In this document: positions 50,545 through 54,609 of the stretch, in pieces | Layout of the letters: each line of letters opens with the position of its first letter | Position numbering within the stretch: position 1 is the first letter of the stretch | From: Escherichia phage vb_EcoM_bov9_1 | Sequence record: MT884006.2 | Reading direction: 5' to 3' (one strand) | DNA: 64,000 bases | Made by a program: the position numbers and the translations under genes | Notes under the pieces: generated by a model | What the model was told of the DNA's origin: nothing | Databases searched by the model: none | The model's input: the letters and a program-made list of their open reading frames with translations, nothing else

Positions 50545-53500
50545 ATGGCTACTTTAAAACAAATACAATTTAAAAGAAGCAAAACTGCAGGAGCACGTCC
50601 TGCCGCTTCAGTATTAGCCGAAGGTGAATTGGCTATAAACTTAAAAGACCGTGTACTTTTTACTAAAGATGACCAAGGAAATATTATTGATCTGGGTTTT
50701 GCTAAAGGCGGTAGCATTGACGGGAATGTTATTCATATAGGAAACTATAATCAAACTGGTGATTATACTTTAAATGGCACCTTCACTCAGACAGGTAATT
50801 TTAATTTAACTGGTATTGCTCGAGTAACTCGCGATATTATTGCCGCCGGGCAGATTATGACTGAAGGCGGAGAACTTATTACAAAAAGTTCAGGTACAGC
50901 ACATGTTCGTTTTTTCGATGGCAATAGTCGCGAACGTGGAATCATTTATGCCCCGGCTAATGACGGTTTAACTACACAAGTACTTAATATCAGGGTTCAA
51001 GACTACGCCGCTGGTGATGAAAGCACCTATGCATTTTCGGGCAGTGGACTATTTACTTCACCTGAAGTATCAGCATGGAAATCTATTTCGTCTCCGCAAA
51101 TTCTGACTGATAAAGTTATTACAAATGGGAAGAAGACCGGCGATTATGATATCTATTCATTAGCAAATAACACTCCATTGGCAGAAAGCAAAACGGCTAT
51201 TAACCACCTCCGTGTTATGCGAAATGCCGTAGGATCTGGTATATTCCATGAAGTTAAAGATAACGACGGGATAACCTGGTACGCCGGTGATGGGTTAGAT
51301 GCCTATCTTTGGTCGTTTACCTGGTCCGGTGGATTGAAAGCAGGCCATTCTATTTCTGTTGGTACTCCTGGTGGCAATAAAGGATACTCTGAATTAGGGA
51401 CTGCTTCAATTTCTCTTGGTGATAATGATACTGGATTTAAATGGCATCAGGATGGATATTTCCATACAGTAAACAACGGAACAAGAACTTTCATTTACGG
51501 TCCTGCGGAAACACAAAGCCTTAGAAAAATGGTTATGGGTTATTCTCCGGATGGTGTTCTTATGACAACGCCACCGACAGAAAACTATGCTTTGGCTACT
51601 GTTGTTACTTACCATGATAATAATGCATACGGCGATGGTCAAACACTTTTAGGATATTATCAAGGTGGTAATTACCATCATTATTTTCGCGGTAAGGGTA
51701 CTACAAACATTAATACTCACGGCGGTTTGTTAGTTACTCCAGGTAATATTGATGTTATTGGCGGTTCTGTTAATATCGATGGTAGAAATAATGCTTCTAC
51801 ACTGATGTTTAGAGGTAACACAACTGGTAGTAGTTCAGTTGATAATATGACAATTTCCGTTTGGGGCAATACGTTTACTAATCCTAGTGTAGGTAATCGT
51901 AAAAACGTCATGGAAATTTCTGATGCAACTAGCTGGATGAGTTATATTCAAAGACTTACTACTGGCGAAGTAGAAATGAACGTTAATGGTTCATTTGAAT
52001 CATCTGGTGTTACTGCTGGAGATAGAGGAGTTCACACAACAGGTGAAATTTCATCTGGAGCAGTGAATGCTCTTCGTATTTGGAACGCAGATTATGGAGC
52101 CATTTTTAGACGTTCAGAAGGAAGTCTTCATATTATTCCAACTGCTTATGGCGAAGGCAAAGATGGCGATATTGGTCCACTTCGCCCATTTAGTATGGCT
52201 TTAGATACTGGTAAAGTTACTATTCCAGATTTACAATCAAGTTACAATACGTTCGCTGCTAACGGTTATATTAAATTTGTTGGTCATGGAGCGGGTGCCG
52301 GCGGTTATGACATTCAATATGCTCAAGCGGCTCCTATTTTCCAGGAAATTGATGATGATGCTGTAAGCAAATATTATCCTATTGTTAAACAGAAGTTTTT
52401 AAACGGTAAATCTGTTTGGTCTTTAGGTACCGAAATTGAATCAGGTACATTCGTTATTCATCATCTGAAAGAAGATGGTTCACAAGGCCATACATCAAGA
52501 TTTAATATGGATGGTACAGTTAATTTCCCTGATAATGTTCTGGTCGGTGGTGGTGAAGCTGCTATTGCTCGTAATGGTAATATTTTCTCGGATATTTGGA
52601 AAACGTTTACTTCTGCAGGCGACGTAACTAATATTCGCGATGCAATAGCTACTCGTGTTGCCAAAGAAGGTGATACGATGACCGGCACTCTTTGGATTAA
52701 TAAAGATGCTGCTGGAATAGTTCTTAATCCTCCTTTGGCCAGTGATTCATCATTTATTCGTTCCGATACGGCCGGGGTCAATAATTGGTATATTGGTAAA
52801 GGCGGTGCCGACAATGGTCTAGGTTTTTACAGTTATGTTACACAAGGCGGTGTATATATAACAAATAACGGAGAAATATCACTTTCTCCTCAAGGACAAG
52901 GAACATTTAATTTTAATAGAGACCGCCTCCATATAAACGGTACACAATGGACCGCACATCAAGCTGGTGACTGGGCTAACCAATGGCGTCAAGAAGCACC
53001 GGTATTTGTAGATTTTGGTAATGTCGGTAATGATAGTTATTATCCTATTATTAAAGGAAAATCCGGTATTACTGATGAAGGATACATATCTGGTGTAGAT
53101 TTTGGTATGCGACGCATTACTAATACATGGGCACAAGGTATTATCCGTGTAGGTAATCAGGAAAACGGTTCCGACCCACAAGCTATCTATGAATTTCACT
53201 CTAATGGTACTTTTTATGCTCCGAGCTTACTTAAGAGCGGTAGAGTATCAGCTGGTGGTGGTGACCCTGCATGGGGCGGGCCGTGTATTGTACTTGGAGA
53301 TAACGATACCGGTTTGCTTTGGGAAAACGATGGTATTTTCAACGCATATGCAAACGGCCAAGGTGTGTTTAGTTTTAGACCTGGTTTAGCTCAGACATTC
53401 GGTGATGTTAACTTCCACTGTAATGCAGGTATGTATGTTCGTGATAACATTGATGTTAACGACGTTTATATTCGTTCTGATATTCGTTGTAAGTCGGAAA

Positions 53501-53796
53501 TTAAGCTTATTAAGAACGCTCAAGAGAAATCTAAACTATTGGGCGGTTATACTTATCTGGTTAAAAACTCTGTTACAGACGAAGTTAAACCGTCCGCAGG
53601 TTTAATTGCTCAGGAAGTTCAAGAAGTATTACCTGAACTTGTTTCTGAAGATAAAGAGACCGGACTGCTTCGTTTGAACTATAACGGTATTATTGGTTTA
53701 AATACAGCTACAATCAACGAGCATACAGATGAAATCAAGGAATTGAAATCTGAAATTGCTGAATTGAAAGCATTAATTAAATCATTGATAAAATAA
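50545..53796 (+). CDS. 37: Long tail fibre distal subunit gp37 with C-terminal auto-cleaving chaperone-like domain
   Basis: 1083 aa; N-terminus MATLKQIQFKRSKTAGARPAAS; C-terminal SDIRCK motif and coiled-coil tail (53476-53793). Confidence 0.9.
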   Translation: MATLKQIQFKRSKTAGARPAASVLAEGELAINLKDRVLFTKDDQGNIIDLGFAKGGSIDGNVIHIGNYNQTGDYTLNGTFTQTGNFNLTGIARVTRDIIAAGQIMTEGGELITKSSGTAHVRFFDGNSRERGIIYAPANDGLTTQVLNIRVQDYAAGDESTYAFSGSGLFTSPEVSAWKSISSPQILTDKVITNGKKTGDYDIYSLANNTPLAESKTAINHLRVMRNAVGSGIFHEVKDNDGITWYAGDGLDAYLWSFTWSGGLKAGHSISVGTPGGNKGYSELGTASISLGDNDTGFKWHQDGYFHTVNNGTRTFIYGPAETQSLRKMVMGYSPDGVLMTTPPTENYALATVVTYHDNNAYGDGQTLLGYYQGGNYHHYFRGKGTTNINTHGGLLVTPGNIDVIGGSVNIDGRNNASTLMFRGNTTGSSSVDNMTISVWGNTFTNPSVGNRKNVMEISDATSWMSYIQRLTTGEVEMNVNGSFESSGVTAGDRGVHTTGEISSGAVNALRIWNADYGAIFRRSEGSLHIIPTAYGEGKDGDIGPLRPFSMALDTGKVTIPDLQSSYNTFAANGYIKFVGHGAGAGGYDIQYAQAAPIFQEIDDDAVSKYYPIVKQKFLNGKSVWSLGTEIESGTFVIHHLKEDGSQGHTSRFNMDGTVNFPDNVLVGGGEAAIARNGNIFSDIWKTFTSAGDVTNIRDAIATRVAKEGDTMTGTLWINKDAAGIVLNPPLASDSSFIRSDTAGVNNWYIGKGGADNGLGFYSYVTQGGVYITNNGEISLSPQGQGTFNFNRDRLHINGTQWTAHQAGDWANQWRQEAPVFVDFGNVGNDSYYPIIKGKSGITDEGYISGVDFGMRRITNTWAQGIIRVGNQENGSDPQAIYEFHSNGTFYAPSLLKSGRVSAGGGDPAWGGPCIVLGDNDTGLLWENDGIFNAYANGQGVFSFRPGLAQTFGDVNFHCNAGMYVRDNIDVNDVYIRSDIRCKSEIKLIKNAQEKSKLLGGYTYLVKNSVTDEVKPSAGLIAQEVQEVLPELVSEDKETGLLRLNYNGIIGLNTATINEHTDEIKELKSEIAELKALIKSLIK

Positions 53797-53826
53797 TAAA
53801 AGGGCCTTCGGGCCCTGGAGGTTTAT

Positions 53827-54609
53827 ATGGCAGTAGTAGGAATTCCTGGTTGGATTGGGACTTCAGCCGTCGCTGAAACAGGCCAACGTTGGATGACAGC
53901 AGCTTCTAGAGAATTGCGTCTTGGTAACCCGTCTTGGATGTCCCAATTCGCGGGCCGCTCAAGAGAAATTATTCACACGCTTGGAGCAGACCATAACTTC
54001 AATGGTCAATGGTTCCGAGATAGATGTTTTGAGGCAGGTAGTGCACCTATAGTGTTTAATATCACTGGAGATTTAGTATCATATTCTAGAGACGTTCCTT
54101 TATTCTTCATGTACGGAGATACACCGAATGAATATGTTCAATTGAATATACACGGCGTAACGATGTATGGTCGCGGCGGGAATGGTTGGGCTGCTGGAGC
54201 GATTGGAGCGTCTGACGGTGGTGTATGTATCCAAAATGATATAGGTGGACGCCTACGAATTAATAATGGGGGAGCTATTGCTGGAGGCGGCGGCGGTGGC
54301 GGTGGATATTCGCAAGCCAATAACTGGGCAGGAAAATATGTATGTGGAGGCGGCGGTGGTCGTCCATTTGGTTTAGGCGGAAATAATGGTGCTCGATGGC
54401 CTGGTGGAAATGCTAGCTTAACAGCACCTGGTGCTGGTGGTAATACTGGCCAATATTGGGCTGGCGGTGGAGGTGAAGTTGGTCAACCAGGTCAATATGC
54501 TAATCCAGGTAATGGTTATTCAACACCTCCGACAAATCCTGGTGCTGCTGTAGCAGGATCGGCTCCAACGTGGCAAAACGTTGGAGCCGTATACGGTTCA
54601 AGAGTATAA
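53827..54609 (+). CDS. 38: gp38 tail fibre adhesin (T2-type, glycine-rich)
   Basis: 260 aa; [11 protein letters not shown]...[35 protein letters not shown]; poly-Gly motifs between variable segments. Confidence 0.85.

Follow-up and report, generated by a model that had tools for sequence, protein, structure and literature searches.

A probable T2-type long tail fibre tip module, with a predicted self-cleaving gp37 and a PP01-like gp38 adhesin, in Escherichia phage vb_EcoM_bov9_1

The stretch of DNA analysed here, referred to below as the window, comprises 64,000 nucleotides (nt) of Escherichia phage vb_EcoM_bov9_1 (sequence record MT884006.2). By its gene order, 34-35-36-37-38-t (Table 1), the locus considered is a T-even long-tail-fibre operon, and our attention was directed to genes 37 and 38, which encode the precursor of the distal fibre subunit and the tip adhesin, and to the short hairpin at their junction. 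Gene 38 lies directly 3' of a gp37 with a predicted cleavable chaperone end and upstream of t, the context of a T2-type adhesin. The protein matches described below suggest that this module is very probably the distal tip of a T2-type long tail fibre, formed by a self-cleaving gp37 that is capped by a gp38 adhesin. Positions 53300-54700 of the window are 100% identical to Escherichia phage vb_EcoM_bov10K1 (MT884007.2), a Tequatrovirus that originates from an environmental sample of a cattle farm in Hungary and was propagated on enterohaemorrhagic Escherichia coli (EHEC) O157:H7 Sakai (PMC8407724). In record MT884007.2 the gp37 homologue (152909-156160, 1083 amino acids, aa) is labelled "hypothetical protein" and gp38 "tail fibers protein"; the tip module is thus under-annotated in the public record rather than unknown.

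The original prediction held that the last ~106 residues of gp37 contain an SDIRCK motif followed by a coiled-coil tail, and that they form an intramolecular chaperone/auto-cleavage domain of the SDxRxK type. The first statement is confirmed and the second supported by homology, and the extent of the domain, residues 978-1083, is correct. The Pfam family Peptidase_S74 (PF13884, "Chaperone of endosialidase") matches residues 978-1033 with a score of 44.1 bits against a cut-off of 22 (E = 2.5e-11). The match covers positions 1-57 of the 58 in the model, and model position 1 falls exactly on Ser978. As is usual for this family, the domain is located at the extreme C-terminus, where it makes up the last 106 of the 1083 residues of the gp37 homologue. 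Furthermore, the last 206 residues match S16 gp37 (6F45_A) in a phmmer search (E = 2e-31), in an alignment which places ...DVYIR-SDIRCK over ...DLNVS-SDRRIK of S16.

A profile was then built from six aligned T-even chaperone sequences, namely those of the window, PP01, T2 and three metagenomic relatives. The profile retrieved 6F45_A (1e-28), MYRF ICA 7DC3 (4.9e-9) and 8JOV (9e-8). All six sequences agree in the S, D, R and K of the motif, and SDIRCK is aligned with ADLRAK of MYRF 7DC3, which is the crystallised, mutated and cleavage-dead form of the site. Ser978 is followed five residues downstream by Lys983, as expected of a Ser-Lys dyad; in MYRF, S587/K592 are the equivalent of endoNF S911/K916 as catalytic dyad (PMC8326128). 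The tail announced by the original prediction is visible in the last 36 residues as five clean heptads, Ile occupying each of the a positions and N, H, L, L and L the d positions. The structure of the MyRF ICA revealed that trimerisation is driven by a C-terminal triple coiled coil (PMC8326128).

By analogy with characterised fibres, gp37 is predicted to be cleaved between Arg977 and Ser978, yielding a mature protein of 977 residues. In phage S16 the last 113 residues of gp37 constitute the intramolecular chaperone, and cleavage at S^SDRRIKK is known experimentally (PMC7917993); release of the S16 chaperone domain has also been documented elsewhere (PMC7289586). For T2 and T6, a gp37 that is cleaved and capped by gp38 has been in the literature since 1986 (Drexler et al. 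1986, cited in PMC3157838). The pentapeptide DVYIR that precedes the motif is invariant or near-invariant in all lineages compared and is identical to DVYIR of the fPS phages; for Yersinia phages possessing this same pentapeptide, cleavage after DVYIR has been predicted, and the gp38 docking surface is exposed only once the chaperone domain is released (PMC7917993). The Peptidase_S74 domain was also found in gp37 of T2 and PP01, and it is lacking in T4 gp37, which binds the receptor itself. As a separate observation, the gp37 frame of the sequence IMGVR_UViG_2974741249_000001 is broken ~128 codons before the stop codon, just upstream of the VY[IV]RSD cleavage motif, so that this motif is absent from the in-frame translation; a frameshift, a sequencing error or a pseudogene may be involved.

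The product of gene 38 is, judged by its sequence, a T2-type adhesin in architecture. This agrees with the original prediction, which described an N-terminal attachment region and glycine blocks, including a run of eight glycines at 54283-54306. Gp38_N matches residues 1-42 (E = 1.7e-20) and GP38 residues 47-260 (E = 2.6e-72), the latter over model positions 1-218 of 218 (Pfam). Among structures, matches were obtained to 9V85 (E = 1.5e-137) and 6F45_D (E = 4.4e-51). W9, W22 and W37 of the attachment domain are aligned with the three tryptophans of S16 gp38 which insert into pockets of gp37 (PMC7917993). Glycine accounts for 32% of residues 110-260, and conserved glycine motifs alternate with variable loops across 16 gp38 homologues. 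In one sequence, IMGVR_UViG_2974787500_000001, gp38 measures 277 aa, and a glycine-rich motif with its variable segment (GGGGGYYSPFSQMRLTF, present twice) is duplicated in tandem at residues ~150-190; this recalls the expansion of host range through duplication that has been described for adhesins of T-even phages. Minus-strand open reading frames over the glycine-rich region were also considered (for example 54138-54320, which would encode polyproline) and were rejected as mirror images of Gly codons rather than genes.

The specificity of this adhesin may be approached through PP01, whose gp38 (9V85) combines a beta-helix with a polyglycine-II sandwich bearing loops A-E and binds OmpC of E. 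coli O157 (PMC12892980). The receptor-binding domain of the window gp38 is ~97% identical to this crystal structure, and residues 49-260 are 100% identical to those of G4507 and CAM-21, the latter with O157:H7 as its recorded host. Loops A-C are conserved, as are the essential residues Y159, Y209 and Y230 (PP01 numbering). Within loop B of PP01, Y159, Q161, K168 and Y169 matter for infection, K168 and Y169 being proposed contacts with lipopolysaccharide (LPS), while Y230 crosslinks to OmpC loop 7, its deletion abolishing infection and most of its substitutions being tolerated (PMC12892980). Given loops that match those of PP01 gp38 exactly or almost exactly, OmpC of O157 is the likely receptor, and we hold with good confidence that it would be bound together with an LPS contact through loop B. 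It seems that the window gp38 probably works like PP01 gp38, an expectation which does not extend to identical specificity. A receptor of the T2, K3 or Ox2 type was considered and rejected: T2 gp38 is only 53% identical to the window gp38, with unrelated loops, and the loops of the latter are of the PP01 type.

The differences from PP01 are located in loops D and E. In loop D, a threonine is replaced by glutamine, one glycine is deleted and the following tyrosine becomes tryptophan (TGTGYY to TGQ-YW), with the equivalent of Y209 retained; in PP01 deletion of G208 is tolerated and Y209 is essential (PMC12892980). Loop E has Asn229 in place of A228 and retains the equivalent of Y230. In PP01, infection withstands the substitutions A228V and A228L but not A228D or the deletion of A228, and Asn is not among the variants (PMC12892980). 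That the residue at position 228 is not hydrophobic here counts against an unaltered PP01-type interaction and is the only feature at variance with the PP01 rule, and with Asn in a position where Asp is lethal to PP01, the contact with OmpC may differ in detail. A more radical view is that these changes retarget gp38 to another outer-membrane protein, or to another allele or surface of OmpC. Loop E enters a hydrophobic cleft, A228D abolishes infection via OmpC of O157, and receptor switches of gp38 by small changes in the variable segments are known (PMC12892980, PMC3157838). We nonetheless regard retargeting as unlikely, as the window gp38 shares loops A-C and the essential tyrosines of loops B, D and E with PP01, the glycine deletion in loop D has its tolerated counterpart in PP01, and Asn is uncharged, unlike the Asp tested at position 228. 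Furthermore, the same receptor-binding domain allele is found in CAM-21 with its O157:H7 host, and bov10K1 grows on O157:H7 Sakai. A minor possibility is that the Asn of loop E and the loop D allele may change which OmpC variants are recognised.

Sliding comparisons revealed that the two proteins are mosaics. The whole gp37 is 83% identical to PP01 and 82% to JS98; however, this similarity is unevenly distributed. Up to about residue 850, identity to PP01 amounts to 84-100% in most 50-residue windows and falls to 58-78% in three, while the last ~230 residues are 90-98% identical to JS98 versus 34-82% to PP01. For the C-terminal 131 aa, the values are 94.6% to JS98, ~60% to the PP01/AR1 type and 35% to T2. 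The pattern continues into gp38, of which residues 1-60 are 100% identical to JS98, residues 1-40 are only 50-65% identical to PP01, and the part from about residue 120 onward is PP01/G4507-like. At the nucleotide level, sliding identity over ~53200-53950 amounts to 0.75-0.96 with JS98 versus 0.45-0.81 with PP01 and G4507. Phage KMB39 possesses the same combination of JS98-type and PP01/G4507-type parts. To judge from these sequence comparisons, the gp37 tip, the chaperone domain, the junction and the gp38 attachment domain travel as one unit, and a receptor-binding domain of the PP01/G4507 type appears joined to this JS98-type cassette. This arrangement agrees with the lock-and-key linkage between subtypes of the gp37 C-terminus and of the gp38 N-terminus that has been published before (Trojet et al. 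2011, PMC3157838). Joint inheritance of the gp37 tip, the chaperone domain and the gp38 N-terminus would also explain why PP01 gp38 is functional on T2 gp37 only after exchange of its N-terminus (PMC12892980). Within the fibre shaft, gp37 residues ~451-500 and ~701-750 (within 51895-52194 and 52645-52794) are each 0.58 identical to PP01, and 0.46 and 0.52 identical to JS98, respectively. The flanks of both windows are 88-96% identical to PP01, and the two have the appearance of additional small patches in the mosaic.

In the junction that separates the stop codon of gene 37 from the ribosome-binding site of gene 38, the transcript can fold into a hairpin that ends 10 nt before the gene 38 ATG (53827). 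All lineages examined carry a GC-rich stem-loop of 6-8 base pairs (bp) at the 37-38 junction, with stabilities of -10.6 to -14.7 kcal/mol, and its position is kept in T2, PP01, JS98, T4 and the metagenomic relatives. The stems differ between lineages yet remain complementary: GGGCC/GGCCC, GGGGC/GCCCC, AGAGGGC/GCCCTCT, AAGGGGC/GCCCCTT and GGGGGC/GCCCCC. Junction sequences were folded one by one for this comparison, as stem register was lost in a MAFFT alignment owing to unequal stem and loop lengths, and no pair counts were taken from the alignment.

The window holds 14 hairpins with a UUCG loop, compared to 0.66 expected from shuffles. For each of the ten intergenic ones, the UUCG lies on the same strand as the adjacent gene or genes, as a rule a few bases downstream of a stop codon. 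Hairpins of the C(UUCG)G class were originally discovered in T4 mRNA (Tuerk et al. 1988; PMC4371310), and the 37-38 hairpin displays the features of the T-even intercistronic members of this class, with a GC-rich stem, a C-G closing pair and a UUCG loop on the sense strand. Another strong hairpin of the C(UUCG)G type, with an 8-bp stem (AGGGAGCC-UUCG-GGCUCCCU), occupies 49822-49841. It comes after the stop codon of gene 35 (49817) and ahead of the late promoter TATAAATA located at 49849, upstream of gene 36.

Tentatively, and at a little under even odds, we read the 37-38 hairpin as a sense-strand element that stabilises or punctuates the mRNA. It most likely leaves the ribosome-binding site of gene 38 unoccluded. 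Two results weigh against this sense-strand reading: the 91-nt stretch around the hairpin is no more stable than shuffles (z = 0.49), and a simple terminator scan found the hairpin terminator-like only on the minus strand. The same z value led us to reject a larger RNA structure around the gene 38 start, only the local stem-loop being notable. An Rfam scan of 53300-54900 at E <= 1 returned no match.

Could the hairpin instead regulate the translation of gene 38, through ribosome positioning or through coupling with gene 37 termination? The original prediction had suggested a modulation of this kind, and the window hairpin does abut the Shine-Dalgarno sequence. In T4, moreover, the hairpin separates the Shine-Dalgarno sequence from the gene 38 AUG and acts as a split-Shine-Dalgarno enhancer, which reduces the spacing from 22 to 5 nt (Nivinskas et al. 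1999, PMC3014915). The T4 junction reads GGAG-aggggcUUCGgcccuu-cuaaauAUG, and this homologous hairpin raises gene 38 translation. The split mechanism is inapplicable here, because the Shine-Dalgarno sequence is 3' of the stem at normal spacing; GGAGG follows the hairpin, and no GGAG is present 5' of the stem. A Shine-Dalgarno-type sequence is likewise found 3' of the hairpin in all T2-type relatives examined, being GGAGG or GGAG in most and AAGGA in T2. Hairpins of a similar kind are also found behind many further stop codons of the window, irrespective of what comes next, and the stem here pairs with neither the Shine-Dalgarno sequence nor the AUG. The existence and position of the hairpin (53801-53816) are upheld; its modulation of translation is unproven, and regulation of gene 38 in this manner appears improbable to us.

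A role as a terminator, whether a leaky one in the sense direction that lowers gene 38 relative to gene 37 or a minus-strand one that stops asiA antisense transcripts, is more doubtful still. On the minus strand the stem is followed by the tail TTTATTATTT, and minus-strand tails are T-rich in all lineages; this richness is, however, mostly imposed by the presence of the stop codon and of an A-rich spacer. The genes asiA and t abut, which leaves no room for a terminator between them. As to the sense direction, the annotation of G4507 shows a putative plus-strand terminator at the corresponding site, and attenuation would suit a stoichiometry of one gp38 per gp37 trimer, as inferred from the S16 complex. 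The plus-strand stem is nevertheless followed by UGGAGGUUUAU and not by the U-run of a rho-independent terminator. Furthermore, the extra-stable UUCG loop is on the plus strand, and all ten intergenic UUCG hairpins follow the orientation of the neighbouring genes. This strand bias argues for an element of the sense RNA and led us to give less weight to a minus-strand terminator. Comparably doubtful is the proposal that the hairpin tunes gp38 to about one copy per gp37 trimer, by partial termination, 3' processing or reduced coupling, and that T4 re-used it as a split-Shine-Dalgarno enhancer when an unrelated gene 38 replaced the adhesin. Stabilisation or punctuation of the sense mRNA is thus the reading that we retain, and the 37-38 hairpin is a generic T-even junction element rather than one that occludes the ribosome-binding site.

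With regard to transcription of the locus, an exact-consensus search located late promoters nearby only upstream of genes 34 and 36, and no exact late promoter TATAAATA was found between genes 36 and 38. Genes 36, 37 and 38 therefore probably form one late transcript. A scan for sigma-70 promoters yielded 3 sites versus 3.9 expected, that is, no enrichment. In the gap between genes 38 and t, the sequence AATAAATA at 54616-54623 differs by one mismatch from the T4 late-promoter consensus and is probably the late promoter of the holin gene t; the variant is common to T2 and PP01, and JS98 has the exact consensus at the equivalent spot. The genes t (plus strand) and asiA (minus strand) converge at 55298/55299 with zero intergenic gap, so that early leftward asiA transcripts would enter t and gene 38 in antisense orientation without having passed a terminator. 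The 37-38 hairpin, in its terminator-like minus-strand form, is the first strong stem-loop on their way.

Table 1. Features of the long-tail-fibre locus, in positions of the window
Feature	Position	Strand	Basis or remark
Gene 34	44821-48693	+	
Gene 35	48702-49817	+	
Gene 36	49880-50536	+	
Gene 37, long tail fibre distal subunit precursor, 1083 aa	50545-53796	+	Open reading frame; Pfam Gp34_trimer and Peptidase_S74
JS98-type cassette: gp37 distal tip, chaperone domain, junction hairpin, gp38 attachment domain	~53200-53950	+	Sliding identity
DVYIR, gp37 residues 973-977, predicted mature C-terminus and gp38 docking surface	53461-53475	+	Aligned with S16 DLNVS
Intramolecular chaperone/autoproteolysis domain (putative), gp37 residues 978-1083, 106 aa	53476-53793	+	Peptidase_S74 match
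SDIRCK, gp37 residues 978-983	53476-53493	+	Start of Pfam S74 model; homologue alignment
Ser978, predicted nucleophile, P1' residue	53476-53478	+	
Lys983, predicted general base	53491-53493	+	
C-terminal coiled-coil helix of chaperone domain, gp37 residues 1048-1083	53686-53793	+	Heptad pattern
Hairpin A-GGGCC-UUCG-GGCCC-U, between gene 37 stop and gene 38 ribosome-binding site	53801-53816	+	-12.3 kcal/mol
Shine-Dalgarno GGAGG of gene 38, 5 nt before ATG at 53827	53817-53821	+	Sequence; conserved position
Gene 38, tail-fibre tip adhesin, 260 aa and stop	53827-54609	+	Open reading frame; Pfam Gp38_N and GP38; PDB matches 9V85, 6F45_D
gp38 N-terminal attachment domain, residues 1-42, with Trp9, Trp22 and Trp37	53827-53952	+	Gp38_N
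gp38 receptor-binding domain, residues 47-260, beta-helix and polyglycine-II (PGII) sandwich	53965-54606	+	GP38; 9V85
Loop A, WAAGAI, gp38 residues 121-126	54187-54204	+	Identical to PP01 loop A, W119-I124
Run of eight glycines, gp38 residues 153-160, part of glycine-rich motif/PGII helix	54283-54306	+	Conserved in PP01
Loop B, gp38 residues 163-172	54313-54342	+	Identical to PP01 loop B
Loop C, NNGARW, gp38 residues 186-191	54382-54399	+	Identical to PP01 loop C
Loop D, NTGQY, gp38 residues 206-210, variant loop	54442-54456	+	PP01 NTGTGY
Loop E, NPGNGYS, gp38 residues 226-232, variant loop	54502-54522	+	PP01 NPGAGYS
t (holin)	54642-55298	+	
asiA	55299-55571	-	

These elements can be assembled into a mechanism, which draws on homologues for cleavage, capping, receptor identity and hairpin function, and is anchored in the homologies, motifs, mosaic pattern and hairpin conservation observed here. 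In it, gp37 would be made as a 1083-residue precursor, the last 106 residues of which, the Peptidase_S74 chaperone, would trimerise by means of their C-terminal coiled coil and template the folding of the fibre tip. The chaperone domain would then cut itself off between Arg977 and Ser978, using the Ser978/Lys983 dyad. The exposed ...DVYIR tip would be capped by a single gp38, whose N-terminal domain (residues 1-42, with its three tryptophans) would plug into the gp37 trimer, and the polyglycine-II sandwich of gp38 would offer five loops to the host receptor. Finally, the C(UUCG)G hairpin may stabilise or punctuate the late transcript of genes 36-37-38.

Two considerations speak against this scheme. 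For this phage, both the cleavage of gp37 and the presence of gp38 in the virion are taken over from homologues, and the AlphaFold2 single-sequence model of the last 131 residues of gp37 is poor, with a mean pLDDT of 42. The same model contains one long helix (residues 1046-1082), whose block-mean pLDDT reaches 82-87 only from about residue 1063; no other part of the model is helical with confidence. That the C-terminal domain of gp37 would instead stay in the virion as a trimerising coiled coil only, with gp38 binding elsewhere, is nonetheless very improbable: support for the chaperone fold does come from sequence homology, the model being poor, but neither the Ser/Lys dyad nor the invariant SD.R.K motif is disrupted, gp37 of S16, T2 and T6 is documented to be cleaved, and release of the domain is what exposes the gp38 docking surface.

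Self-cleaving gp37, the gp38 adhesin, modular shuffling and the UUCG hairpins of T-even phages are all published, and no new biology is implied. In practical terms, the analysis pinpoints the host-range determinant of an anti-O157 biocontrol phage, with OmpC of O157 as predicted receptor; the adhesin specificity predicted from the loops is of the PP01/OmpC type rather than the T2 type. It also defines exchangeable units which could serve host-range engineering: the block made up of gp37 tip, chaperone domain and gp38 N-terminus, and, separately, the gp38 loops.

Comparison with known systems places the module among several relatives. The gp37-gp38 tip of S16 (6F45; Dunne et al. 2018, cited in PMC7917993 and PMC12892980) has the same architecture, with S^SDRRIKK where the window has R^SDIRCK, and S16 gp38 likewise combines an N-terminal plug bearing three tryptophans with a five-loop polyglycine-II sandwich. 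The two differ in that DLNVS precedes the cleavage site in S16 and DVYIR does so here, in that the gp38 loops are different throughout, and in that S16 targets Salmonella OmpC. In PP01 gp38 (9V85; PMC12892980), the tyrosines that are essential or crosslinked are those conserved in the window gp38, whereas its loop D is one residue longer, its loop E carries Ala228 as opposed to Asn, and two further changes are conservative. JS98, a Dhakavirus, resembles the window in the last 131 residues of gp37 (94.6%), in gp38 residues 1-60 (100%) and in the hairpin stem. Its hairpin loop, however, is CUCG, and its gp38 loops are unrelated, with 20-55% identity in several 20-residue windows of the C-terminal half; the gp37 shaft of the window phage is also more PP01-like than JS98-like.

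T2 shares with the window the gene order 36-37-38-t, the Peptidase_S74 domain, a VYIR^SDIRLK site, the junction hairpin and the glycine-rich scaffold of gp38. It differs in having only 35% identity in the chaperone region and 53% in gp38, and in a gp37 of 1341 aa. The receptors of T2 are different ones, FadL and OmpF. Processing of T2 gp37 (Drexler et al. 1986) and the role of T2 gp38 as adhesin (Riede et al. 1987) are both cited in PMC3157838. T4 gene 38 shares the C(UUCG)G hairpin at the 37-38 junction; in T4, however, the Shine-Dalgarno sequence is 5' of the hairpin, while here it is 3' and at normal spacing, and T4 gene 38 encodes an unrelated chaperone. Finally, K1F endoNF and the MYRF ICA (MEROPS/Pfam Peptidase_S74) have in common with gp37 the spacing of +5 between Ser and Lys and a trimerisation driven by a coiled coil. 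Their passengers are a tailspike beta-helix and a transcription factor, respectively, whereas here the passenger is the tip of a thin T-even fibre; and, unlike in these two systems, the new C-terminus generated here would by analogy with S16 become the docking site for a separate adhesin.

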